41,297 nucleotides of DNA, taken from the sequence record MZ936314.1, one strand, 5' to 3'. The notes below the pieces were generated by a model. That model was not told the origin of the DNA and searched no databases. It worked only from the letters and a program-made list of their open reading frames with translations. Below are positions 3,410 through 41,297 of this stretch, in pieces. Positions within the stretch are counted from its first letter, which is position 1. Every line of letters starts with the position of its first letter. The DNA comes from Acinetobacter phage APK86. A program made the position numbers and the translations under genes.

Positions 3410-3569
3410 TATTATTGTTGGGCTATTTCTGCTACATTACTTCTTAGGTGCAGCCTTCTGCTTTGCTGCTTGGGTGTTACCTATATCAAGTACAGCAAAA
3501 TTCTACACATTCTTATACTTAATTCTAGCTATTCCTGTGTTTGCATGGTTAGCTAACAAATACGCATAG
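3399..3569 (+). CDS. Small membrane protein (56 aa, two hydrophobic segments)
   Basis: AGGAAG ribosome-binding site 4 nt upstream of the ATG at 3399. Hand-translated to MISNIIVGLFLLHYFLGAAFCFAAWVLPISSTAKFYTFLYLILAIPVFAWLANKYA. Better supported than the minus-strand ORF 3503..3730 that overlaps it. Confidence 0.4.
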   Translation: MISNIIVGLFLLHYFLGAAFCFAAWVLPISSTAKFYTFLYLILAIPVFAWLANKYA

Positions 3570-3577
3570 GTGATATT

Positions 3578-3976
3578 ATGGACGTAAGACTTCAACAAGT
3601 TATTGAACAGTACAAAGATAAGACCACACCGATTCGCTTGTTCTATATGGATGATGACGGTACTGATTGGTTGGAAGAAAGTGGTTGTATAGGTTATGTT
3701 ATTTATCCACAAGGTGCGGTATCTGCCCATGACTTTGAATTAGTAGGCGCTGGGACTGTACTGCATAATGCAATCGGTAAGGTTGTTGATGTGCAGACTG
3801 GACGTATTCTATATCAGCATGGGAGCTACCAGAATCCGAACTTAAAAGTAGTGGGTAGTCATCTACGGGGTTGGGAAATCAGACATCCTGACGGACGTAT
3901 GGTAGCGTTCTATCGCACAAAAGGACCAGCTACCCGCTTAGCTAACTACCTAAACGGTGTGACTAACTCAATCTAG
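3578..3976 (+). CDS. Hypothetical protein (132 aa)
   Basis: ORF with a GGTG..ATG context. No motif recognised. Confidence 0.55.
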   Translation: MDVRLQQVIEQYKDKTTPIRLFYMDDDGTDWLEESGCIGYVIYPQGAVSAHDFELVGAGTVLHNAIGKVVDVQTGRILYQHGSYQNPNLKVVGSHLRGWEIRHPDGRMVAFYRTKGPATRLANYLNGVTNSI

Positions 3977-10520: not shown

Positions 10521-10543
10521 TTTGAAGTTACACTAATAGAAGG
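10521..10543 (+). promoter_or_regulatory. Putative phage RNA-polymerase promoter (TTTGAAGTTACACTAATAGAAGG)
   Basis: A 23-nt motif with 22 of 23 matches to the four identical copies downstream of the RNA polymerase gene. It ends in ...ATAGAAGGAGA, reminiscent of T7-type promoters (...TATAGGGAGA). It lies in an AT-rich intergenic island about 115 nt upstream of the DNA polymerase gene. Confidence 0.5.
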
Positions 10544-10657
10544 AGATATAAATATGATATTAAATATTATAAATATAACTATAATAATATACATAAGTAA
10601 TATTATAGTATTCTTATTTATACTTCTTCTTATAAATATACTTAAAGGTAGATATGC

Positions 10658-11518
10658 ATGAAACATAATTGGATTATTCTGGATTTTGAGGTGGAGAACT
10701 ATGAGTACTGTGGTGCTTTAGCAAGTCCGCATTGCCCTGAGAACTATGTAGTAGCTGCTGGTTGGGCGTGTGATAATGGTTTAGTTAAATCTGAATATTA
10801 TACGGAACCTGATCAATGGGTAGCATCTACAGCATTTGATGAAGACTTATTAAACTCTAAGGTATTAGTAGCACATAACTTATCTTTTGAGTTACATTGG
10901 TTACTTGCAACTAAGTTTGAACTTATTAAAAAATTCTTAAATAACGGTGGTCGTGTATTCTGTACGCAATATGCAGAGTTTTTAATTACACATCAAACTG
11001 AAATGTATCCTAAGCTTGAAGATTGCTCTGTTAAGTACGGTGGTACTAAAAAGATTGATGCGGTTAAGTTACTTTGGGAACAAGGTTATAAGACTTCTGA
11101 AATCGACCAAGCATTGTTAATGGAATACTTAGCGGATGAGCATAGCGGTGACGTAGCAAATACACGTCGAGTATGTTTTGCTCAGGTAGCGTACATGCAA
11201 GAAGTCGGTATGTACGAAATGGCTAAGATGCGTATGGATAGTTTATTATTCAATGCTATCGCAACGTATAACGGCTTGTATGTGAACATGGATGTAGCTA
11301 AGAAGAACATGGATGAGCAGTACAAACGTATTGCAGAGTTACAAGAGGATGTTCGTAGTTATCTACCTAAAGATTTACCTGATGAGTTAGAGTTCTCTTT
11401 CACTTCTGGTTATCACATGAGTGCGTTCTTATTTGGCGGTACGATTACCTACGATAAGAAAGTTCCTTACGATCCTCCTAAGTTTGTTAAAGGAGAATAC
11501 TATGTATTTGGAGAATGA
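10658..11518 (+). CDS. DNA polymerase I family, N-terminal fragment (3'-5' exonuclease region) of a split gene
   Basis: Begins with the exo I-like motif ILDFEVEN. 286 aa. It continues in 11932..13392 after an inserted HNH gene. Confidence 0.7.
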   Translation: MKHNWIILDFEVENYEYCGALASPHCPENYVVAAGWACDNGLVKSEYYTEPDQWVASTAFDEDLLNSKVLVAHNLSFELHWLLATKFELIKKFLNNGGRVFCTQYAEFLITHQTEMYPKLEDCSVKYGGTKKIDAVKLLWEQGYKTSEIDQALLMEYLADEHSGDVANTRRVCFAQVAYMQEVGMYEMAKMRMDSLLFNAIATYNGLYVNMDVAKKNMDEQYKRIAELQEDVRSYLPKDLPDELEFSFTSGYHMSAFLFGGTITYDKKVPYDPPKFVKGEYYVFGE

Positions 11519-11939
11519 GTTCAAGTTAGAAGGCGAACAGCTACGTTCGCTACGCTCAGGTAAGATCGTTAACGGTTACTTAAATAACGTCGGGTATCTA
11601 GTAGTCGCTGTAGGTAAGAAAAAGTATCTGTACCATAGAGTGAAGTTCTATCTAGCACATGGTTACTTACCAAAAGTTGTAGATCATATTAATGGTCAAC
11701 GCACAGATAATCGCCTAACCAACTTACGTGCAGCTACTTACTCATTAAACAACCACAATACGCATAACCGTAAGAATGCTACAGGTGTCAAAGGTGTATA
11801 TCTTAAACACAGATATGGAAAGACACGCTACCGTGCTAAAATTGTAGTGCAAGGTAAGGGTATTGAATTAGGGTTATTTGATGTATTAGCTGACGCAAAA
11901 GCAGCCTATGATAAAGCAGCAGAGAAATATTATGGTTAA
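11502..11939 (+). CDS. HNH homing endonuclease with AP2-like DNA-binding domain, inserted within the DNA polymerase gene
   Basis: AGGAG ribosome-binding site, then ATG at 11502. HNH motif VDHINGQRTDNRLTNLR. Downstream AP2-type segment GVKGVYLKH...YRAKI. It overlaps both polymerase fragments. Confidence 0.75.
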   Translation: MYLENEFKLEGEQLRSLRSGKIVNGYLNNVGYLVVAVGKKKYLYHRVKFYLAHGYLPKVVDHINGQRTDNRLTNLRAATYSLNNHNTHNRKNATGVKGVYLKHRYGKTRYRAKIVVQGKGIELGLFDVLADAKAAYDKAAEKYYG

Positions 11940-13392
11940 AATTAAATATGATCCAGAGAACCCACTAACACCAGAACAGATTGAAGATTTAGAATCTAAG
12001 TACGGGAAGTTACAACGCTACAAAGCTGGGAAGTTTAAAGGTCTACCTAAGATACAACGCTTAGATACAGATCAGCCTCTCCTTAAATGGGGCAAAGGAA
12101 CATACCGCTTTGAAGGTTTGGTAAACTTCAATGAACTACCTAAGCATGTATCTGAACAGTTCACAGGTGATCGTGCAGAGTTCAAAGGTAAGCGTGTACA
12201 TGCAGCTTGTGGTACTCCTGTGTATTCAACAGGTGATGATGCTTTAGACTTAGTAGCTAACTTCACAGAAGCAGCACAGCCATTACGTGACATGAAGAAG
12301 TTAATCAAAGATACCACGACATATTATCTTGTTGAAGATGATAAGGGTAAGCAGTCTGGTATGCTTCAATATGTTGAACCCAACGGAATCATCCATCACC
12401 AACTAAACAACTGTGCAACCGTTACAGGTCGCTTATCAGGTTCTCGACCGAATATGCAGAACATTCCCCGAGATGGGACATCTAAAGTTAAACAGATGTT
12501 CGAATCGCGTTTCGGTAAAGAAGGACGTATTGTTGAGGTCGATTACTCAGCACTTGAGGTCGTAACATTAGCTAGTATCTCGGGAGATAAGAACTTACTT
12601 CAACAGTTGATTGATGGTACAGATATGCACTGCTATCGTTTAGCAGGTGCTTTAGGAGAAGATTATGAAACTGTGTTTGAGAAGTGTCATGATAAGTCTC
12701 ATCCTGAACACAAGAAATATAAACAACTACGTACCGATATTAAGCCTCGTGCCTTCGCTAACCAATACGGGGCTTCCGCTATGGGTATTAGCTTCTCAAC
12801 AGGATGTTCACTTGAAGAGGCTGAGCAATTTAAAGAGACAGAGCGTAAGTTATTTCCAGAGTCTTCCACATACGCTGAACGAGTTGTACGTCCACAAGTC
12901 GAACAAAACGGACTCACAGTCCCGATGGAATCAGAACTCGTTAACGGTGTATGGAAACACTTCCGACGTGGATTCTTTAAAGCTAACAGTGGAACCTGCT
13001 ATAGCTTCCGTCAATTTCCCAAATACGTTAAAGGCGTAGGTGAGAAATATGATTATAAAGATACACAGCTTGCGAACTATTGGTGTCAAGGCGAAGCGTC
13101 ATTTATTGTGCAAGTCGCATGCGGTCGGGTTATTAGAGAACTTATTGCTCGGAACTTCGCTGGCGGTTTGGTGTTACCTATCAATACTGTGCATGATGCT
13201 ATATATCTCGATTGTGCGACCGAATCTTTAGCGAATGAATACGGTAAACTCGTACAGGAAATTATGGAATCGACACCTAAGTATATGGCTGAGATTATCC
13301 CAGCATTGAAAGAGTGGCGATATGATACAACACCGTTCCCAGCAGCAGCCGAGTACGGAATTAACATGATGGATAAGGTAGATGTTACTTAA
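11932..13392 (+). CDS. DNA polymerase I family, C-terminal fragment (polymerase domain)
   Basis: Pol A motif A-like DYSALEVV. 486-494 aa. The ATG at 11932 overlaps the HNH stop (ATGgTTAA). An alternative start at 11908 cannot be excluded. Confidence 0.7.
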   Translation: MVKIKYDPENPLTPEQIEDLESKYGKLQRYKAGKFKGLPKIQRLDTDQPLLKWGKGTYRFEGLVNFNELPKHVSEQFTGDRAEFKGKRVHAACGTPVYSTGDDALDLVANFTEAAQPLRDMKKLIKDTTTYYLVEDDKGKQSGMLQYVEPNGIIHHQLNNCATVTGRLSGSRPNMQNIPRDGTSKVKQMFESRFGKEGRIVEVDYSALEVVTLASISGDKNLLQQLIDGTDMHCYRLAGALGEDYETVFEKCHDKSHPEHKKYKQLRTDIKPRAFANQYGASAMGISFSTGCSLEEAEQFKETERKLFPESSTYAERVVRPQVEQNGLTVPMESELVNGVWKHFRRGFFKANSGTCYSFRQFPKYVKGVGEKYDYKDTQLANYWCQGEASFIVQVACGRVIRELIARNFAGGLVLPINTVHDAIYLDCATESLANEYGKLVQEIMESTPKYMAEIIPALKEWRYDTTPFPAAAEYGINMMDKVDVT

Positions 13393-13524
13393 TGAAGACA
13401 TAGAATTGGTAAGAATACCTCAACGAAGTAAATATAGACGATATGAATCAGTTCCAGTGACTAGACCAGTGGACTGCATCACGATTACACTTGACGATCT
13501 TTATGAAATTTTAGGAGTATCAGT

Positions 13525-14415
13525 ATGAACGCATTATTAGCACAAGCAGCAGCAGCAATCGAAGCAGGTAAAGTACAATTAGACATGACTGAAACTACAG
13601 CAGGTGGTTTTGAGAAACGTCTGTTAGGTGAAGGTACAGCGATTGTACAATTCACACAATATATTGATCATGGTATTCAGAAACAGAAACCATTCAAAGG
13701 TCAACCTAAGAAACCAGCTAAGACTGCTTCTTTAGGATTCCACATCCTTGCTGGTATTGGTACTCTCCCTGATGGTACAAAAGAACCATACGTACAAGAC
13801 GGTAAGCTTGAAAAGATTCGTACACGTTTTGACGTTGTTTTACACCAAAACGAAAAATCTAACGCTGTTAAAATCTTCAACGCATTGAACTATGCTAAGG
13901 ATGCAACACACTTTGTACAGAAACTTGGTAGCATTTACTTATTATCAATTGGTATTGAGAAAGGTAAAGACGGTAAAGAATATAACACTTATGACTTCTC
14001 TCAACTACAGAAGCCAATTGCTAATGCAATGACTGGTGCTATGTATGAAGCAGGTAAGGATGGTGTAGCAGATACACCAGCAGAAGAATATCAATTGTTC
14101 TTGTGGGATGCACCTACTAAGGAGCAATGGGATTCAATCTACATTGAAGGTGAGTACGAGAAGAAAACTAAGGATGCAAATGGTAATGAAGTTATCGAGA
14201 AGAAAAGTAAGAACTTCATCCAAGAGAAAATCCGTAGTGCTACTAACTTTAAAGGTTCACCAATCGACCTATTGTTGATTAGTCAAGGTGAGGATTTACC
14301 AGCACTTGAGGCTGAGGTGGAAGACTCAGACCCTAATGACCAACATGTTGAGGAAGATAAGACAGATATTCCAGCAGTTCCCGTAGCAGACATCCCAGCA
14401 GTTCCAGCCGTTTAA
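13525..14415 (+). CDS. Hypothetical protein with an acidic, repeat-containing C-terminal tail (296 aa)
   Basis: AGGAG ribosome-binding site. The C-terminus reads ...EAEVEDSDPNDQHVEEDKTDIPAVPVADIPAVPAV. Confidence 0.6.
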   Translation: MNALLAQAAAAIEAGKVQLDMTETTAGGFEKRLLGEGTAIVQFTQYIDHGIQKQKPFKGQPKKPAKTASLGFHILAGIGTLPDGTKEPYVQDGKLEKIRTRFDVVLHQNEKSNAVKIFNALNYAKDATHFVQKLGSIYLLSIGIEKGKDGKEYNTYDFSQLQKPIANAMTGAMYEAGKDGVADTPAEEYQLFLWDAPTKEQWDSIYIEGEYEKKTKDANGNEVIEKKSKNFIQEKIRSATNFKGSPIDLLLISQGEDLPALEAEVEDSDPNDQHVEEDKTDIPAVPVADIPAVPAV

Positions 14416-14470
14416 GCCTACTTACAACTAAATATAAGCCTCCTTCGGGAGGCAACCTCTAGGAGATTAC

Positions 14471-14590
14471 ATGTACACTTATATTGAAGATGAAGACTTT
14501 CAACCAGCAACACCAATGAATTGCCCTAATTGTGGATTAGTAGCAACATATACTGGAACTTGTCATTACTGTGGGGAGAAGTGCGAATGA
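14471..14590 (+). CDS. Zinc-ribbon microprotein (39 aa, CPNCG...CHYCG)
   Basis: AGGAG then ATG at 14471. Hand-translated to MYTYIEDEDFQPATPMNCPNCGLVATYTGTCHYCGEKCE, with two CxxC pairs. Confidence 0.4.
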   Translation: MYTYIEDEDFQPATPMNCPNCGLVATYTGTCHYCGEKCE

Positions 14591-14622
14591 GTTTAGATGT
14601 TAATAAATATTAGGATTTCCAT

Positions 14623-15579
14623 ATGAATAATATCCTATCACGCTTTGGCGTAACCTCCGACAGTATCTCTAAAGTGGATACATACAAAGCAGGTCATCAA
14701 GGAGATGTGTTATTACATGATGGAGATAGCGACTGTTATTACGTATGCACTCAGTATCGTAAGATGCAAACTATTCTTAATAACTTCGAGATTGCTATTC
14801 AGGAAAAGATGTTCTTAACAGGGGCTACAACCGCACGAGTTCATTTAACTCCTACAGGTTGTGCTAAGAACGGACGGCATTTACTGAACACAGTTAAACC
14901 GTATCAAGGGAACCGAGAAGGTAAACAAAAACCTGCTAACTTAGAAGAATTACGCAATATTGCACCTGATTATTTCAAAGATCATCCTACGATCAAGGTG
15001 TTTAGTCATTATGACATTGAAGCCGATGACGCTTTAATGATTGACCATTATCACTATCAGAATGGTATCTTAGTAAGTGCGGATAAGGATTTACAAATAT
15101 CTCCACACAAATCCTATAACATGGATGAAGGTAAATTTGAAACACTACTTAAAGGTGATCGTTTTGGATGGATTGCTAAGAAAGAGTGGTTGACACCAAG
15201 TTTAAAACCTGCATCTAAAATCGTTGGTAAGGGTACTCGTTTCTTTTTAGCACAGATGATTATGGGAGATGTCGCGGATAATGTTAAAGGGTTGATTAAA
15301 CTAAACGGAAAATCCTGTGGAGGAGCAGCGGCTTTAGCCTTACTTAAAGATGTTAAGGAGGAGGTGGTCGCGGTTAATTTGGTATTAGATGCATATAGAG
15401 CCATAGATCAAAACCCGATACCAGAAGCCGAGGCGCTTTGGTTGCTACGTAATAGGGAAGATAGTGCTTATAAATATCTAATGGAACATGAATTATCTAA
15501 AGATAACTTACACTTCTTAGAAGATTGTTATCACGAACGAATTTGGAGGAGAGAACCTGATGAAGACTCCTTGTATTGA
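14623..15579 (+). CDS. 5'-3' exonuclease (FEN/T7 gp6-like)
   Basis: Acidic catalytic-cluster motif YDIEADDAL. 318 aa. Position matches the exonuclease of T7- and phiKMV-like phages. Confidence 0.7.
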   Translation: MNNILSRFGVTSDSISKVDTYKAGHQGDVLLHDGDSDCYYVCTQYRKMQTILNNFEIAIQEKMFLTGATTARVHLTPTGCAKNGRHLLNTVKPYQGNREGKQKPANLEELRNIAPDYFKDHPTIKVFSHYDIEADDALMIDHYHYQNGILVSADKDLQISPHKSYNMDEGKFETLLKGDRFGWIAKKEWLTPSLKPASKIVGKGTRFFLAQMIMGDVADNVKGLIKLNGKSCGGAAALALLKDVKEEVVAVNLVLDAYRAIDQNPIPEAEALWLLRNREDSAYKYLMEHELSKDNLHFLEDCYHERIWRREPDEDSLY

Positions 15580-15997
15580 TCATGGAAGACGTGGTAATCG
15601 GGATGGTTATACTATGTGTAAAGTTACTGGTGTAACTCGTTTAATGCACCGTGTAGTATATTGTGACCATAATAAAGTACCTTATGATAGTATTAAGGGT
15701 CTACTGATTAGACATAAATGCGATAACCCTAGATGTATTAATCCAGAGCATTTGGAAACAGGTACTGCACAAGATAATTCGAATGATATGGTATCTCGTA
15801 ATAGACAGGCAAAAGGATTAAAGCACGGTATGACTAAGTTGACCGTAGAGCAGGTTAAATATATTCGTGCGAACTATAAAGCGTGGTGTCCTGAGAACGG
15901 TGCTAAAGCTTTAGGTTTAAAGTTTAACGTTTCTCCAACGGCGATACGTTTAGTACATAAAGGATTGAACTGGAAGTGTATTGGAGAGTACGCATGA
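15560..15997 (+). CDS. HNH endonuclease (HNH_3-type)
   Basis: Motif ...LLIRHKCDNPRCINPEHLETGTAQDN. Confidence 0.7.
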   Translation: MKTPCIDHGRRGNRDGYTMCKVTGVTRLMHRVVYCDHNKVPYDSIKGLLIRHKCDNPRCINPEHLETGTAQDNSNDMVSRNRQAKGLKHGMTKLTVEQVKYIRANYKAWCPENGAKALGLKFNVSPTAIRLVHKGLNWKCIGEYA

Positions 15998-16434
15998 CAG
16001 CACGTAAGATTTCCAGAGGTCAACTAAGACCTATCGCTATGAAGCTCTATAAAGAGCAAGGTGAGAAGTGTTTACTATGTCACAAGCCGATTGACTTTAC
16101 TAAGATGGGTAGAGATTCAGATTACGCAGTAGATCATGACCATGTGACAGGTTTAATACGAGGTACACTTCATCGTTCTTGTAACGCTGGTGAAGGTAAG
16201 GTAATTAATGCGGTAGGTTCTTGGGGCAGTAAGTCTAAAGAGCATGCAGCAATCCGAGAGTGGTTGCAGAACCTACTTAATTATTATGCTTATTGTGATG
16301 CACATCCAACGACTATGATTTACCCAAGTCACAAAACAGCCGATGAGAAGAAAGAAGCTCAGCGTGTGAAGCGAAATGCAGCAGCACGAAAAGCACGAGC
16401 AGTAGTTAAACAACGTAAACAGAAAGGTGATTAA
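15994..16434 (+). CDS. Endonuclease VII-like Holliday-junction resolvase
   Basis: CLLCHK...DHDHVTGLIRGTLHRSCN matches the T4 endonuclease VII zinc/HNH signature. The ATG at 15994 (ATGA overlap, GGAGAG ribosome-binding site) is preferred over the GTG at 15976. Confidence 0.65.
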   Translation: MTARKISRGQLRPIAMKLYKEQGEKCLLCHKPIDFTKMGRDSDYAVDHDHVTGLIRGTLHRSCNAGEGKVINAVGSWGSKSKEHAAIREWLQNLLNYYAYCDAHPTTMIYPSHKTADEKKEAQRVKRNAAARKARAVVKQRKQKGD

Positions 16435-16437
16435 TTT

Positions 16438-17373
16438 ATGTCTAAAGTAGTATTCAGCAGTTTAAAAGAATGGAAACAACGTGCCCTTCGTATGCACTTT
16501 CAAGGTCTAACTAGCTCAGAGATTTCTACAGAGTTAGGTATTTCTGATCGAACTATTCGCGATAATATCCAGAAGTTAGCTCATCGTGTTGACAAGAGTG
16601 TAGCATTGAAGCCACGTAAGCCTACAATCTTTGTAATTGGTGATACTCAGGTTAAACAAGGTATTAGTCTTGACTATATCCACTGGATTGCAAACTATAT
16701 CAAACTTAAACAACCTGACATTATTGTACAGATTGGTGATCACTACGATATGGCATCGTTAAGCACATATGATAAAGGGCAACTTAGTGCAGAAGGTCGT
16801 CGATTCGTATTAGATATTGAGGCAGGTGATGAAGCACTAGGCATTATTGAAGATTATATCCGATCTGTTAAAGGTTATAACCCACGTAAGGTTGTGGTGT
16901 TAGGTAATCATGAAGATCGTATTGATCGTTTTGTTAAGACTCATCCAGAGTTTGAAGGTCTGATTGGTACAGATAAATTAGCCTTTCACGATTATGGTTG
17001 GGAAGTTATCCCGTTCTTAAAACCACATAACATTTGTGGTATCCACTTTGTACACTACGTGATTAACGTGAACACGGGTAAGCCACTAGGCGGTAATCTT
17101 GATCTACGTCTTAAGACAGTTGGTGAATCTTTCGTAATGGGACATCAACAAATGTATGCTTATGCAGAACGTCAATTACCTATGACAGGTCGTAAGCAGT
17201 TTGCAGCAGTGGTTGGTGCATGTTATGTACATGATGAACCTTATAAAGGTTGGCAAGGTAATCACCACTTCCGAGGCTGTTTAATGCTGTATGGTTGTGC
17301 TGATGGTTATGCTATGCAGAAGAAAGTTGAACTTGAACATATGCGCGAAATTTACGAAGGAGAGCATGCTTAA
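16438..17373 (+). CDS. Helix-turn-helix domain fused to a calcineurin-like metallophosphoesterase
   Basis: N-terminal LTSSEISTELGISDRTIRDNIQ (sigma region 4/LuxR-like HTH). Metallophosphatase motifs follow: GDTQ, GDHYD, GNHE. Confidence 0.65.
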   Translation: MSKVVFSSLKEWKQRALRMHFQGLTSSEISTELGISDRTIRDNIQKLAHRVDKSVALKPRKPTIFVIGDTQVKQGISLDYIHWIANYIKLKQPDIIVQIGDHYDMASLSTYDKGQLSAEGRRFVLDIEAGDEALGIIEDYIRSVKGYNPRKVVVLGNHEDRIDRFVKTHPEFEGLIGTDKLAFHDYGWEVIPFLKPHNICGIHFVHYVINVNTGKPLGGNLDLRLKTVGESFVMGHQQMYAYAERQLPMTGRKQFAAVVGACYVHDEPYKGWQGNHHFRGCLMLYGCADGYAMQKKVELEHMREIYEGEHA

Positions 17374-18023
17374 TGAGTTATAAAGTCGGGTTAATTGGAC
17401 TTGCTGGGGCAGGTAAAGATACAGTAGCAGTTATCTTACAAGAGGCTTTAAAAGAAAGAGGTCAAGTGTTTGAAATTGATCGTTACGCAGGATTACTTAA
17501 GGAAACGGCGAAAGCTGTCTTCGGAGATAACTTTGATGATCGTGATGTGAAAGAAGTTATGGTCCCATTTAACGATAAACTCAAACGTAAGGCTAGTTAC
17601 GAACTATTATACCTTAGTGGGAAACTGAATCTTAATGTAATGCAGTGTTCCTTATATGCGGACTTATGCTTAGAACACTTTGCACACTTAGACGAAATTA
17701 GTCCTCGCCTATTCCAACAACTATTAGGTACAGAAGTAGGGCGTGCTATTGATCCTGATATTTGGGTTAATTATCTTAAGAATCAAGACCGTAACCTAAT
17801 CATCCCTGATGTTCGTTTTGGTAATGAAGATGTGGACTTCAATATTCTAATTACCCGACACCCTGTACCAAAAGGTAAACTACATGCATCTGAGGTATTC
17901 GCTGCTGAATTACAGCTATCTGATAACCCTTATGATTACGTAGATTATGTAATTCATAATGATGGTTCTATTGAAGACCTCAAACGTAAAGTTCAACAGT
18001 TAGTAAACAAAATTAAAGTTTAG
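17373..18023 (+). CDS. P-loop kinase, deoxynucleoside monophosphate kinase-like
   Basis: Walker A motif GLIGLAGAGKDT, of the T4 gp1 dNMP kinase type. 216 aa. Confidence 0.55.
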   Translation: MSYKVGLIGLAGAGKDTVAVILQEALKERGQVFEIDRYAGLLKETAKAVFGDNFDDRDVKEVMVPFNDKLKRKASYELLYLSGKLNLNVMQCSLYADLCLEHFAHLDEISPRLFQQLLGTEVGRAIDPDIWVNYLKNQDRNLIIPDVRFGNEDVDFNILITRHPVPKGKLHASEVFAAELQLSDNPYDYVDYVIHNDGSIEDLKRKVQQLVNKIKV

Positions 18024-18031
18024 GAGATATA

Positions 18032-20449
18032 ATGTCTGATCTATACCAACGCCAAGTAGCTCTTGAAGAATCATACAGTCACGATAGTATCATTGCTGGT
18101 CAGAAGCAAGTACTAGATGCATATCAGCAAGGACGTGCTGCGGACGTAGGTACAGGTCGTATCCTATTAGCTAAAGCCTTTGAAGTTGGTGTAGAAGCTT
18201 TAAATGCAGCTAAGAAACAAAAGATTCGCGGTATTGGCGGGAAATACTTAAAATTACTTTCTATCGCTGATCCCGAAGTTTTAGTAATGGCTGCATTACG
18301 TGATATTATTAATGCATGTGCTGTACCTGAACCAGTGTCTATGCAGAAAGTACTTACGGGTATTGGTCGTATGATTGAGTCAGAATCTATGTTGGTATTT
18401 ATGCAAGAGTTAAACCCTGCATATACTGACAAGACTATCCAGTATTTAGACAACACAGGTACAAAATCAGTTACCCACCGTTATCGTACATTCTTAGCAG
18501 GTTCTAAGTCTATTCAACTAGATTGGGAACAGTGGTCACAAGAGGAGCGTATAGGTGTAGCTAAGTTGTTGGTAAGTTGTTTATATGACGCTACAGGATT
18601 ATTCCAATGGGCTAAACTGGATAGCGGTATGTATCACATTAAAGCTTCTGAACCCTTAGCGAAACACTTTCAGGATGCAGCGAGTGCAGCGAGAGCAGTT
18701 GTTAAATACCCTCCTATGTTGATCAAACCTATGGATTGGGAAGGACAGTATAACGGTGGGTATTTAACTGAATGGTTTAAACATAACTCACCTATGTGTG
18801 GTATTCGCTTTATTAAGAAAGAGCACAAGCATTGGGTTATTGATAACTTAAACAATGGTGCAGAGCTAGTTAAGGCTGCAATGAATAAAGCACAGTCTGT
18901 ACCTTACAGGATCAATAAAGACATCTTAGCAATCTTACGTAAAGCAGTTGCTATGCGTGTAGGTATTTTAGGTTTACCAAGTTATCAACCTGCACCTAAA
19001 CCTGCATTTCCGTTTACTGAGGATTGGTTAAAGTCCGAGGCTACTCAGGAAGAATTAGATCAATTCCAATTCTGGAAAGGTTTAATGAGTTCATGGTATA
19101 CACAAGAAGCTAAACGTGTTGGTCGACAACACGGTATCTTAAGTCGTATTCAAGAACTGGTTAAATATCAGGACGAAGAACGTTTGTACTTTCCAACGTT
19201 TATTGATTGGCGAGGTCGTCTTTACTTCCGTAGTAGTATTAACCCACAATCGAATGATTGTATTAAAGGTTGTCTTGAGTTTGCAGAGGGTAAACCTCTC
19301 GGTAAAACAGGACTTAAATGGTTAAAGATTCATGTTGCAAACTGCTGTGGTTATGATAAACATGATCCTGATTTAAAGGAGAAATGGTGCGATGACAACT
19401 GGAACTACATTCAGAATTTTATCAATAACCCCCTTGATGTTGATGCCCCCGAACCTGACACAGCATTTACGCTACTACAAGCAGGCTTGGCATTACAATC
19501 TGCGTTGGAACTGGAAGACCCTACGACCTACGTATGTCATGTCCCTGTCGCTATGGATGCAACTTGTTCAGGTCTTCAACACTTATCTGCGCTCACTAGA
19601 GACGAAGTAGGTGGACTTTACACGAACTTATTAGACAACGGTGAAGACCAGAAGTCTGATATTTATATGCGTGTAGCGCACATAGCAGATGAGTCTAAAC
19701 TAGAATTAGCTGATTCTCCTGCTGTACGTCAGTATTGGGTGGATAAACCCATTAGTCGTAATATGGCGAAGAAACCTGTGATGACTTACGTATACGGTTC
19801 GAAGTTATTATCAACTATTCAAGGCTTAGCTAATGATATGTATGAAGCAGGTATGGATGAGATTCAGTTAGATGGTAAGACAGTCTTTACTTACAACCGA
19901 TTAGCTAAACCAGTTGGTAAGGCATTACGTAAAGGTGTCGAAGATACTGTACCTAAATCTGCTGAGATGATGAACTACTTGCAGAACGTTGTACGTAAAA
20001 ATAAAGCTGATGCTATGCGTTGGTTTAGTCCAGTAGGTGTTCCTGTTGTGAATTGGGCAGAAGGTATGGTGACTAAACTTGTAGCAATTCGTTCGATGGG
20101 AATCTCCAGAATTGCTTATAATTATCCAGATAACCAATATAATACCTTAAGAGCAGCTAACGGTATTGTACCTAACTTTGTACATAGTATGGATAGCAGT
20201 CACTTATGTTTAACTATCTTAGATTTCGATGGTCAAGTTCTACCAATTCACGACTCATTCGCAACCCATCCTAGTGATGTGGAAGCTATGCATGTGTCAT
20301 TACGTAAGACATTCATTGAAATGTATACACAATTCAGTATTGAAGACTTCTTAAAGTTTAACAATATTGATATTGAAGAGTACACACCACCACTTACAGG
20401 TAACTTAGAGTTATCGGAAATTTCTAAATCCCGTTATATGTTTGGTTAA
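18032..20449 (+). CDS. T7-like single-subunit DNA-dependent RNA polymerase
   Basis: Motifs DWRGRLYF, MDATCSGLQH and HDSFATH correspond to the T7 RNA polymerase motifs DWRGRVY, DGSCSGIQH and HDSFGT. 805 aa. Its position at the end of the replication block is phiKMV-like. Confidence 0.9.
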   Translation: MSDLYQRQVALEESYSHDSIIAGQKQVLDAYQQGRAADVGTGRILLAKAFEVGVEALNAAKKQKIRGIGGKYLKLLSIADPEVLVMAALRDIINACAVPEPVSMQKVLTGIGRMIESESMLVFMQELNPAYTDKTIQYLDNTGTKSVTHRYRTFLAGSKSIQLDWEQWSQEERIGVAKLLVSCLYDATGLFQWAKLDSGMYHIKASEPLAKHFQDAASAARAVVKYPPMLIKPMDWEGQYNGGYLTEWFKHNSPMCGIRFIKKEHKHWVIDNLNNGAELVKAAMNKAQSVPYRINKDILAILRKAVAMRVGILGLPSYQPAPKPAFPFTEDWLKSEATQEELDQFQFWKGLMSSWYTQEAKRVGRQHGILSRIQELVKYQDEERLYFPTFIDWRGRLYFRSSINPQSNDCIKGCLEFAEGKPLGKTGLKWLKIHVANCCGYDKHDPDLKEKWCDDNWNYIQNFINNPLDVDAPEPDTAFTLLQAGLALQSALELEDPTTYVCHVPVAMDATCSGLQHLSALTRDEVGGLYTNLLDNGEDQKSDIYMRVAHIADESKLELADSPAVRQYWVDKPISRNMAKKPVMTYVYGSKLLSTIQGLANDMYEAGMDEIQLDGKTVFTYNRLAKPVGKALRKGVEDTVPKSAEMMNYLQNVVRKNKADAMRWFSPVGVPVVNWAEGMVTKLVAIRSMGISRIAYNYPDNQYNTLRAANGIVPNFVHSMDSSHLCLTILDFDGQVLPIHDSFATHPSDVEAMHVSLRKTFIEMYTQFSIEDFLKFNNIDIEEYTPPLTGNLELSEISKSRYMFG

Positions 20450-20455
20450 TACTAA

Positions 20456-20498
20456 GCCCATGTGCCTTGAGCATGTGGGCTTTTTTTTTTTTTTTTTT
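20456..20498 (+). terminator. Rho-independent terminator after the RNA polymerase gene
   Basis: 10-bp stem GCCCATGTGC/GCATGTGGGC with loop CTTGA, followed by an 18-T run. Confidence 0.8.
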
Positions 20499-20518
20499 GA
20501 AGTTACACTTATAGAAGG
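20496..20518 (+). promoter_or_regulatory. Putative phage promoter, copy 1 of a tandem pair (TTTGAAGTTACACTTATAGAAGG)
   Basis: A 23-nt motif repeated 34 bp downstream and again at +439 bp. It immediately follows the terminator T-run. Confidence 0.5.
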
Positions 20519-20529
20519 GAAGAACCTTA

Positions 20530-20552
20530 TTTGAAGTTACACTTATAGAAGG
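20530..20552 (+). promoter_or_regulatory. Putative phage promoter, copy 2 of a tandem pair
   Basis: Identical 23-mer. It ends ...AGAAGGAGAGAAGGAATG, which overlaps the ribosome-binding site of the 65-aa ORF. Confidence 0.5.
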
Positions 20553-20561
20553 AGAGAAGGA

Positions 20562-20759
20562 ATGAGTGCAAGAGACATTCCATTATTCACTCAAGAGCAA
20601 TATGATTACTTAGATAAGTATTGTTTTGCAGAGAATACAGAACTACTTACACCAGAGGAATTAATCTATAAAACTGGTCAACGTAGTGTAATGTATAAGA
20701 TACAAACATTAATTAACCAACAAGGTCCTACATTGGTCCGTAATAATACATTCATTTAA
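20562..20759 (+). CDS. Small protein (65 aa), duplicated copy A. Its C-terminus was altered by the duplication junction.
   Basis: Identical to 21001..21198 for the first 60 residues, then NNTFI* versus KEIKR*. Confidence 0.45.
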   Translation: MSARDIPLFTQEQYDYLDKYCFAENTELLTPEELIYKTGQRSVMYKIQTLINQQGPTLVRNNTFI

Positions 20760-20934
20760 ATGTATAAACAATTTAGTATTTAAGATTTTTTAAAATTTAA
20801 AAATATTAAAATTAAAAAATAAACACCACCAATTATATGTAAATTAAATTTATTGGAAATTTTTAAATCCCTTTATATTTTTTGTTAATAATAAGCCCAT
20901 GTGTTTTGAGTATTTTGGTTTTTTTTTTTTTTTT

Positions 20935-20957
20935 TTTGAAGTTACACTTATAGAAGG
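20935..20957 (+). promoter_or_regulatory. Putative phage promoter (duplicate of 20496..20518)
   Basis: Identical 23-mer. Confidence 0.45.
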
Positions 20958-20968
20958 GAAGAACCTTA

Positions 20969-20991
20969 TTTGAAGTTACACTTATAGAAGG
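20969..20991 (+). promoter_or_regulatory. Putative phage promoter (duplicate of 20530..20552)
   Basis: Identical 23-mer. Confidence 0.45.
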
Positions 20992-21000
20992 AGAGAAGGA

Positions 21001-21198
21001 ATGAGTGCAAGAGACATTCCATTATTCACTCAAGAGCAATATGATTACTTAGATAAGTATTGTTTTGCAGAGAATACAGAACTACTTACACCAGAGGAAT
21101 TAATCTATAAAACTGGTCAACGTAGTGTAATGTATAAGATACAAACATTAATTAACCAACAAGGTCCTACATTGGTCCGTAAGGAGATTAAACGATGA
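21001..21198 (+). CDS. Small protein (65 aa), copy B, probably the ancestral copy
   Basis: ATGA overlap with the downstream gene at 21195. Confidence 0.55.
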   Translation: MSARDIPLFTQEQYDYLDKYCFAENTELLTPEELIYKTGQRSVMYKIQTLINQQGPTLVRKEIKR

Positions 21199-24939: not shown

Positions 24940-24968
24940 GGAGGGCTTAACGGCTCTCCTTTCTATTT
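24940..24968 (+). terminator. Rho-independent terminator downstream of the major capsid gene
   Basis: Stem GGAGGGC/GCTCTCC with G·U pairs and loop TTAAC, followed by TTTCTATTT. Equivalent to T7 T-phi. Confidence 0.5.
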
Positions 24969-25473: not shown

Positions 25474-25492
25474 ACTCGAAAGGGTTTACTTT
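25470..25492 (+). terminator. Hairpin with a GAAA tetraloop (GTAAACTC-GAAA-GGGTTTAC) followed by TTT; weak terminator or RNA-stability element
   Basis: 8-bp stem including one G·U pair. It overlaps the stop codon of the 97-aa ORF. Confidence 0.3.
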
Positions 25493-25613
25493 AAGATATG
25501 ATATTCAAACAATGATGATTGCAATAACCTTGCAGTGTGGGTACAAGCGTAATGGCTGGCTACGCATAATATCATATCTTAAAGTAAATCAACATAACAA
25601 GGAGGATGTACTT

Positions 25614-40914: not shown

Positions 40915-41297
40915 TCTCCCACCTAACCCGCCCCGCTTACCCCGTGTACCACCTCTACAGAGGAATTTCTAGGAACTCTCTTATCGAGAGTCCTTATCAT
41001 CCTTCCTCATCTTATAGTATGGGTAGTTCAGACCTACATATAGTAGTATGAAGAACAGTATCAATAGTACTATGAGTATTACATTCATAACGGTATTCCT
41101 TATCAACCTTATGGAATGCATCTTATCAATTATCTTATCAGTTGTCTACACCTTTCTTAATATATTTATATATAACGTCACTCTTCGAGTGTACAGTGCT
41201 AGGAATATCACTTAGCAGTACTTATCAACTACACTTATCAACATATATAGGAAGGTTCTAGGTTCTTTCTCTGAGCGTCTGTATTGGTTCGGTAGCT
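40915..41297. repeat. Right direct terminal repeat (identical to 1..383)
   Basis: Exact 383-bp identity with the left end. Confidence 0.9.

Follow-up and report, generated by a model that had tools for sequence, protein, structure and literature searches.

A 23-nucleotide motif (TTTGAAGTTACACTWATAGAAGG) in the genome of Acinetobacter phage APK86 is very probably the promoter for the phage's own T7-type single-subunit RNA polymerase, whose gene occupies positions 18032–20449. Such promoters are already known from predictions in phiAB1, from mapping in AS11 and AS12 and from annotations in GenBank. The window, i.e. the whole stretch of 41,297 bp analyzed here, is the complete genome of a Friunavirus podophage with terminal repeats of 383 bp and a phiKMV-like gene layout, and its best whole-region relatives are 90–96% identical. 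The first-pass annotation of this DNA had read the motif as a phage promoter and proposed that a tandem pair behind the terminator of the polymerase gene launches late transcription, and both proposals are supported by the annotation of relatives, by primer extension, by conservation and by co-variation with the polymerase.

Motif copies and their neighbourhood

The motif is present on the plus strand at positions 10521, 20496, 20530, 20935 and 20969 with 0 mismatches, while 100 shuffles returned 0 matches and none are expected by chance. A weight matrix derived from the motif copies of relatives scored these five sites at 44.9–46.0 bits and the next-best plus-strand match at −9.9. Scanning with up to 5 mismatches and with the weight matrix yielded five forward sites and one reverse site only, and no extra weak promoter copies in the late region. 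All forward copies contain (T/A)ATA followed by GAAGG, i.e. an A/T-rich segment from −4 to −1 and a purine start, and the motif is devoid of dyad symmetry or a stem. The copies do not share one common ending as stated earlier, because only three of the five (10521, 20530 and 20969) end in GAAGGAGA, while those at 20496 and 20935 end in GAAGGGAAG. The GGAG of the former three doubles as a Shine-Dalgarno sequence with an ATG 14–15 nt past the predicted start, and the conserved GGAGA beyond +3 reflects a ribosome-binding site rather than recognition by the polymerase.

The middle promoter (TTTGAAGTTACACTAATAGAAGG, 10521–10543, plus strand) has its predicted start at G 10539. While it had been placed immediately upstream of the DNA polymerase gene, the sequence reveals an intervening hydrophobic ORF of 35 codons (10554–10661, plus strand) directly 3′ of the promoter, whose stop codon overlaps the ATG of the DNA polymerase gene (ATGA) and whose homologue is annotated as APK127v_21; in the predicted transcript, GGAG occupies +4 to +7 and serves as the Shine-Dalgarno sequence of this ORF. 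Behind the RNA polymerase gene lies an intrinsic terminator with a 12-bp stem and 18 T (20454–20498, plus strand), which is likewise annotated in phiAB1 and AS12. It merges into the late promoter P1 (20496–20518, plus strand, predicted start G 20514) such that the final three T of its run also count as bases 1–3 of P1; in each pair, the TTT that opens the first promoter is the tail of the terminator T-run. The late promoter P2 (20530–20552, plus strand, predicted start G 20548) is spaced 34 bp from P1, and its predicted leader of 14 nt contains GGAG and ends at the ATG at 20562. All three promoters match the motif exactly, are kept in relatives, are annotated in phiAB1 and AS12 and agree with primer extension in AS11 and AS12.

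In the GenBank records of phiAB1 (HQ186308) and AS12 (KY268295), phage promoters are annotated at these same three sites, and the sites at 10521 and 20530 match the AS12 promoters base for base. Both phages belong to the same genus as APK86, are 95–96% identical to it in the polymerase region and share the layout of a terminator followed by a tandem pair; APK86 differs from them in a second copy of the pair, obtained via a 439-bp duplication, and in a T-run of 18 T instead of 8–13. For AS11 and AS12, three phage promoters were predicted and, judging by the text of the study, backed by primer extension with RNA isolated during infection, which taken alone does not prove dependence on the phage polymerase and leaves room for RNA processing (Popova et al. 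2017, Viruses 9:188, PMC5537680). We further asked whether the motif is missing from the equivalent intergenic regions of relatives, which the first-pass annotation had named as evidence against its reading. The motif occupies the same two loci in each of the 19 relatives examined, namely one copy 5′ of the DNA polymerase module and the tandem pair after the polymerase terminator, the latter being replaced by a triple in SWH-Ab-3. Our literature search found neither in vitro transcription from the motif by a purified Friunavirus polymerase nor a cappable-seq study of any Acinetobacter podophage, and a search of papers for the literal motif string gave no relevant match. The strand-specific RNA-seq paper on phiAbp1 mentions neither promoters nor antisense RNA (PMC6469957). 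We also considered the five 'phage-specific promoters' of Acibel007 for comparison, which are uninformative as they have a different motif (CTGTACTCACA) and stem from a different genus. A scan of the whole window against Rfam returned 0 families above threshold.

The first-pass annotation described the promoters of phiKMV-type phages as few and poorly defined, a remark that is out of date (PMC10914365). ONT-cappable-seq of Pseudomonas phage LUZ19 revealed few phage promoters, two of which immediately follow the polymerase gene on its downstream side (Putzeys et al. 2024, microLife 5:uqae002, PMC10914365). This tandem pair after the polymerase gene is the layout of the window as well, although the LUZ19 motif (GgtTATGTCACacACAnnGG) is unrelated to that of Friunavirus and the remaining forward promoter of LUZ19 lies within the structural region rather than before the DNA polymerase module.

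Proposed promoter recognition by the phage RNA polymerase

The presumed reader of the motif, a single-subunit polymerase of 805 aa (18032–20449, plus strand), matches T7 RNA polymerase structures with E = 4e-68, and a look-up of its exact protein sequence returned no entry on record. Among the relatives of the phage, two promoter types occur, called A-type (GTTACACT) and G-type (GTTG[C/T]ACT; GTTGTACT), and the change of −9 from A to G and of −8 from C to T is accompanied by the polymerase substitutions S692N, R693N and N/S697R. Only three of the 72 variable polymerase columns are perfectly tied to the promoter type, and these are residues 692, 693 and 697, which align to F755, R756 and approximately T763 of T7 RNA polymerase and which in APK86 (S692, R693 and N697) fall in the specificity loop. 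The polymerase may thus bind the motif partly through this loop, as is shown here only by co-variation. R756 and Q758 of the T7 enzyme reportedly contact −9 and −8, a finding ascribed to Cheetham and colleagues in 1999 and Rong and colleagues in 1998. The two natural specificity classes indicate which residues govern recognition of −9/−8, which is modestly useful, and A-type and G-type promoters together with their polymerases would constitute a natural, ready-made orthogonal pair.

The similarity to T7 includes discrimination of promoters at −8/−9 and loop residues aligned with T7 R756, as well as a TATA melting segment followed by G. The upstream recognition sequence differs, T7 possesses 17 promoters compared to three to four in the window, and the polymerase gene of the window is situated at the end of the middle region, unlike in T7. 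The analogy drawn earlier to the T7 sequence TATAGGGAGA holds only in part: TATAG is common to both, but the SP6 core ACACTATAGAAG is closer, and the GGAGA mainly represents a ribosome-binding site. The SP6 promoter (ATTTAGGTGACACTATAGAAG, Zindervirus) has ATTT...ACACT...ATAGAAG and initiation at GAAG in common with the Friunavirus motif; the core of the ten SP6 promoters in NC_004831 resembles ACACT(T)ATAGAAG, and they contain the same TATAGAAG as the Friunavirus forward copies. Positions −15 to −10 differ, ungapped identity amounts to 13/28, and SP6 employs about ten or more promoters and encodes its polymerase as an early gene. Because one more base separates the ACACT block from TATAG than in SP6, transcription could start at the A at −1 instead of the G.

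Since primer extension is blind to the difference between primary and processed 5′ ends and the motif adjoins a terminator hairpin, the motif might instead mark a place where RNA is processed, or where another phage protein binds, with the 5′ ends mapped in relatives being cleavage products. We consider this very improbable, because −9 and −8 co-vary with residues of the polymerase specificity loop and with nothing else in the polymerase, the core is like that of SP6 promoters, the motif has neither dyad symmetry nor a stem, and the tandem layout matches transcription start sites of LUZ19 obtained by ONT-cappable-seq, which enriches primary transcripts (PMC10914365). Recognition by the host enzyme is even harder to credit and deserves hardly any weight: the look-alikes of sigma-70 hexamers within the motif, TTGAAG and TATAGA, are just 7 nt apart, and a consensus scan for sigma-70-like hexamer pairs with 16–18 nt spacing found none that overlaps any copy, while clear host-type promoters (TTGACA-17-TAAGAT and similar) exist elsewhere at 816, 1197 and 1541.

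With the motif read as a promoter for the phage polymerase, transcription of APK86 would proceed as follows. Host polymerase reads the early genes from the sigma-70 promoters near the left end. The phage polymerase, once made, is expected to bind −18 to −5 (TTTGAAGTTACACT), and we infer that, like SP6 polymerase, it melts the WATA segment (−4 to −1) and initiates with the G of ATAGAAG. The site at 10521 would drive the block from the DNA polymerase to the RNA polymerase gene, and since this block includes the polymerase's own gene, a positive feedback loop may result. Directly past the terminator of the block, the tandem pair at 20496/20530 would launch the late transcript of structural, lysis and packaging genes, which is predicted to undergo attenuation at the terminator that follows the capsid gene (24940–24959).

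The 439-bp tandem duplication

The unit 20305–20743 of the window recurs at 20744–21182 (plus strand) with a period of 439 bp, although the authenticity of this second unit is doubtful. Its first part (20744–20919) is a degenerate copy of the 3′ end of the polymerase gene and the terminator in which the hairpin is destroyed, and no terminator was detected in the second unit. By contrast, P1 (20935), P2 (20969) and an ORF of 65 aa (21001–21198) are exact copies. The pair 20935/20969 is a copy of the pair 20496/20530 because of this duplication, and therefore three independent forward sites remain, namely 10521 and one tandem pair. The five occurrences in the first-pass annotation stand as to all coordinates and the 0 mismatches to TTTGAAGTTACACTWATAGAAGG, whereas the four identical 23-mers cannot be counted as separate occurrences.

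The second pair is a by-product of the duplication, and the duplication is probably not a genuine feature of the lineage. We moderately favour the explanation that the second pair and the entire second unit arose as an artefact of assembly or sequencing, so that APK86 would really possess three forward promoters as its relatives do. The duplication is absent in about 160 related phage records, its junction was not found in IMG/VR or a metagenome collection, and the variant 65-aa protein that it creates has no exact match on record. The pattern of divergence points in the same direction: the diverged 175 bp of the second unit contain 32 substitutions and 0 indels, while the adjoining 263 bp show 0 differences between the units. 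Thirty-one of the 32 substitutions turn G/C into A/T, such that 31 of 59 G/C but only 1 of 127 A/T positions are changed, transitions and transversions are about equally frequent (10 C>T, 9 G>T, 6 C>A and 6 G>A), and 28 of the 32 new bases are identical to an adjacent base. Moreover, the diverged patch is located between the strong hairpin with its 18-T homopolymer and the unit junction, a typical source of trouble for sequencing by synthesis. On the other hand, 32 systematic errors in the consensus would be unusual for a deep phage assembly, the short CGTAA microhomology at the unit junction would equally be given by illegitimate recombination, and SWH-Ab-3 has a natural third promoter copy, therefore promoter amplification does occur at this locus.

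Two biological sources of the biased substitutions were considered and rejected. A diversity-generating retroelement does not fit since G/C positions rather than A are altered, with both A and T as the outcome, and the annotations of the related genomes inspected contain no reverse transcriptase; cytosine deamination alone does not explain that 15 of the 32 changes are transversions. For annotation, three forward phage promoters are due in APK86, and the 439-bp duplication calls for a check ahead of any use of the sequence, e.g. in the engineering of therapeutic phages against A. baumannii.

A promoter-like site on the minus strand

A sixth copy of the motif was overlooked in the earlier inventory. 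This promoter-like site (TTTGAAGTTACACTACTAGAATA, 700–678, minus strand), detected by motif scan with 3 mismatches, is flanked by the terminal repeat on one side and the host promoters on the other. It equals the promoter from −18 to −5 and from +1 to +3, while −4 to −1 read ACTA, and its weight-matrix score of 17.3 bits, compared to about 45 for the forward sites, makes it the sole other positive site. The site is kept in 18 of 18 left ends, and in all 18 its −9 base is that of the forward promoter type (6 G-type, 12 A-type). In an alignment of 15 genomes covering ±160 nt around the site, −9 is the only one of 100 variable columns that is perfectly tied to the type. The site has AATAG in AS11 and in one further phage, which fully matches the start region of the middle promoter. 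No annotation of the site was found in the Friunavirus records and papers checked, and those on phiAB1 and AS12 list three rightward promoters only and leave the minus-strand site unmentioned.

An antisense promoter in LUZ19, P001, is located in the early region, gives transcripts towards or through the genome end and is kept across the genus (PMC10914365). The site at 700–678 has the same position and orientation, although it deviates from consensus at −4 to −1. Judged from sequence comparison, we lean slightly towards reading the site as a fourth promoter that points leftward, or at least as a place where the phage RNA polymerase binds, and as the counterpart of P001. As a conserved antisense element, the site suggests that Friunavirus and Phikmvvirus have a four-promoter layout in common despite unrelated motifs.

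If active, the site would start transcription at G 682 and direct it leftward into the terminal repeat. Such transcripts would span the repeat-laden left end of the genome, which is purine-rich and contains 12 GATAAG and 5 ATAGAGGCA repeats, as well as the terminal repeat, and in concatemers would run on into the neighbouring genome's right end. A leftward promoter might then shield the early genes from late read-through, or aid replication or packaging at the genome end. As a separate observation, the strand skews of the genome flip at 700–678.

Promoter motif and its conservation

The 23-base motif is real and sharply defined. We found the 23-mer TTTGAAGTTACACTWATAGAAGG on the + strand at 10521, 20496, 20530, 20935 and 20969, while none of 100 shuffled controls contained any match to it. 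Scored with a weight matrix derived from 55 sites of relatives, the five sites reach 44.9–46.0 of a possible 46.0 bits, and the next best + strand position in the window reaches −9.9 bits. The five sites named in the first-pass annotation thus exist, but they were over-counted, as the four identical copies are two counted twice, and a sixth copy with three mismatches on the minus strand (700-678) was overlooked. Likewise, the GAAGGAGA ending ascribed to every copy is present in only three of the five. In these three, GGAG lies 7–8 nt upstream of an ATG and hence also serves as a ribosome-binding site. In each pair, the TTT of the first promoter is also part of the terminator T-run. The 10521 site does not directly precede the DNA polymerase gene as had been described. 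Directly after it comes an AT-rich ORF of 35 codons with a very hydrophobic product (10554-10661, MILNIINITIIIYISNIIVFLFILLLINILKGRYA), which overlaps the DNA polymerase start codon and has an annotated homologue in APK127v. No sigma-70-like hexamer pair overlaps any copy of the motif; good host-type promoters are found at other left-end positions (816, 1197 and 1541).

The window belongs to the genus Friunavirus (Autographiviridae, Beijerinckvirinae; Acinetobacter baumannii podophages), with about 160 matching records in megablast. Identity is 95–96% in the polymerase region to phiAB1, AS12, APK09 and others, and about 90% to relatives in the early region. All large ORFs are carried by the + strand, and the T7-type RNA polymerase gene (18032-20449, +, 805 aa) lies just 5′ of the structural genes. 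In the DNA polymerase (10658-13392), an HNH endonuclease ORF (11421-11939) separates the exonuclease portion (10658-11518) from the polymerase portion (11908-13392). The same split is seen in phiAB1 (gp18-20), whereas AS12 has one unbroken gene.

In the GenBank record of phiAB1, 'putative bacteriophage specific promoters' are listed at three sites, of which one precedes the DNA polymerase module and two lie after the polymerase-gene terminator. The AS12 record labels the same three sites 'phage RNA polymerase promoter'. Reading of these loci showed that they carry the motif sequence of the window; the 10521 and 20530 sites are identical to their AS12 counterparts, downstream bases included. 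Using MEME, Popova et al. 2017 (PMC5537680) obtained exactly three rightward matches per genome in AS11 and AS12; primer extension on RNA of infected cells confirmed these promoters. Far from being absent from relatives, the motif is kept at the same two loci in 19/19 relatives examined (17 IMG/VR loci, phiAB1 and AS12 among them, plus APK127v fetched separately). Together with the co-variation with the polymerase described below, these annotations, the published analysis and the conservation bear out the promoter interpretation, which is already published and annotated. Three points deserve attention beyond this: the questionable 439-bp duplication, the conservation of the antisense site and the tracking of promoter type by certain polymerase residues.

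By sequence, the closest classical promoter is that of SP6, not that of T7, to whose initiation region the end of the motif had been likened. Comparison with ten ATTTAGGTGACACTATAGAAG sites located in the SP6 genome shows ATTT, ACACT and ATAGAAG in common. ACACT lies one base further upstream in the Friunavirus motif than in SP6, so that the start position is uncertain by ±1.

Co-variation of promoter type and polymerase

The promoters of relatives fall into two classes, A-type (GTTACACT), to which the window belongs, and G-type (GTTGCACT, GTTGTACT or ATTGTACT; also written GTTG[C/T]ACT). Numbered with the G of ATAG as +1, the G-type differs from the A-type by an A-to-G change at −9, which is often joined by C to T at −8 and sometimes by G to A at −12. 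Only three of the 72 variable columns of the 805-aa polymerase separate both types perfectly, namely 692 (S in A-type, N in G-type), 693 (R or N, respectively) and 697 (N or S in A-type, R in G-type). A phmmer alignment to T7 RNA polymerase (1aro) pairs G690-I-S-R693-I-A with G753-Q-F-R756-L-Q, which places the three residues at T7 positions 755, 756 and about 763 in the specificity loop. In T7 RNA polymerase, R756 and Q758 reportedly read −9 and −8. If so, the type-tracking residues are placed where the changes at −9 and −8 would be sensed. This co-variation points to the phage polymerase as the reader of the motif and to a transcription start at or adjoining the G of ATAG. The A-type and G-type combinations (S692/R693/N697 and N692/N693/R697) could serve as an orthogonal polymerase/promoter pair.

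Proposed transcription programme and the doubtful 439-bp duplication

In the programme we propose, the host polymerase would start at the left-end promoters and proceed rightward; the gene for the phage polymerase forms the end of the middle block, and no terminator was detected before 20454 within the window. From the 10521 site, the newly made polymerase would re-transcribe the block from DNA polymerase to RNA polymerase, its own gene included, which we infer to constitute a feedback loop. The terminator at 20454-20498 would close this unit, and the tandem pair (20496 and 20530) would restart transcription at once into the 65-aa ORF and the portal, scaffold and capsid genes. The placement of the pair after the polymerase-gene terminator, as noted in the first-pass annotation, holds: it lies immediately 3′ of this terminator, in the same order as in phiAB1. 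A second terminator (24940-24959) follows the capsid gene; its hairpin sequence is listed for AS11 in supplementary Table S3 of Popova et al. (PMC5537680). The weight-matrix scan of the window revealed no further promoter downstream of the tandem pairs. Hence, the remaining 16 kb would be reached by read-through, as likewise proposed for phiKMV-type phages (PMC10914365).

A perfect inverted repeat of 21 bp, enclosing 62 nt (25485-25588; RNA fold −41 kcal/mol, z = −7.0), lies in the gap that precedes the gene for tail tubular protein A, the true start of which is likely 25615. Among 16 relatives, both arms keep their outer 18 bp, and the interior is variable in sequence and ranges from 37 to 112 nt. 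The repeat may represent an RNase III-type processing hairpin of the late transcript.

The second promoter pair (20935 and 20969) stems from a tandem duplication with a period of 439 bp, in which 20305-20743 is repeated at 20744-21182. The unit covers the polymerase 3′ end, the terminator, the promoter pair and the 65-aa ORF, and its duplication yields a variant ORF (20562-20759) ending in NNTFI. The final 263 bp of both units, comprising the T-run, both promoters and most of the 65-codon ORF, are identical, while the opening 175 bp (polymerase gene 3′ end and terminator) show 32 differences and no indels. At 31 of the 32, G or C in the first unit is A or T in the second (10 C>T, 9 G>T, 6 C>A and 6 G>A), so that 31/59 G/C but only 1/127 A/T positions are changed, and 28/32 substitutions yield a base identical to one of its neighbours. 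Only the first unit retains an intact terminator hairpin, and the G/C-depleted patch is flanked by the unit junction on one side and by a strong hairpin with an 18-T run on the other. Such a spectrum beside 263 unchanged bases is unlike the natural divergence of a duplicate. The duplication moreover appears unique to the window among about 160 relatives. Every match listed in searches spanning it was pieced from at least two segments over a correspondingly shorter record stretch (about 3,550–3,600 record bases for a 4,001-base query, about 430–450 for a 571-base query), and the junction sequence was not found in IMG/VR or the metagenome collection. We thus consider an assembly or sequencing artefact somewhat the better explanation of the second unit. 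Copy number at the late-promoter locus can vary naturally, as SWH-Ab-3 (IMG/VR copy L007, 12455-12550) has three tandem late-promoter copies instead of two.

The minus-strand site at the left end

The leftward, promoter-like site at 700-678 reads ATAATA-TTTGAAGTTACACT-ACTA-GAATAGAATAGAATAAGAAC on its own strand. It equals the promoter from −18 to −5 and from +1 to +3, deviates only at −4 to −1 and scores 17.3 bits; apart from it and the five forward sites, no position in the genome has a positive score. Positioned after the terminal repeat and ahead of the first host promoter, the site forms the core of the best-conserved non-coding block of the left end in 15 aligned genomes and is kept in 18/18 Friunavirus left ends. 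Its start region is ACTA in most genomes; Abp1, SWH-Ab-3 and a third genome have CATA, and AS11 shares AATA with one further genome. In the AATA form, the site fully matches the AATAG of the middle promoter. The −9 base is G in 6/6 G-type and A in 12/12 A-type genomes, and among 100 variable ungapped columns of the alignment (±160 nt) this column is the only one perfectly linked to type. As haplotype blocks neighbouring the site are shuffled between promoter types, the match at −9 would be hard to explain by linkage alone, which suggests that the same phage polymerase reads this site.

We found no annotation of the site in the Friunavirus records and papers checked: Popova et al. (PMC5537680) report rightward promoters only, and the phiAbp1 RNA-seq paper (PMC6469957) mentions neither promoters nor antisense RNA. 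The site resembles the antisense promoter P001 of LUZ19. ONT-cappable-seq of that phage identified four phage promoters, a set conserved in 15 other Phikmvvirus species (PMC10914365). Two of them directly follow the polymerase gene, a third lies in the structural region and the fourth is antisense, in the early region. Transcripts from the antisense promoter reach the right end of the genome, and the authors of that study suggest that it blocks read-through into early genes (PMC10914365). By analogy, the Friunavirus site is probably a new candidate antisense promoter of the LUZ19 kind.

Over 1-700, where the + strand is pyrimidine-rich, both GC and AT skew are inverted, with the flip at about 650-750. 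On its minus strand, this region has 12 GATAAG repeats and, at 384-475, five ATAGAGGCA repeats, which begin immediately after the 383-bp terminal repeat (bases 1-383, identical to 40915-41297). Both repeat families may be packaging or replication signals.
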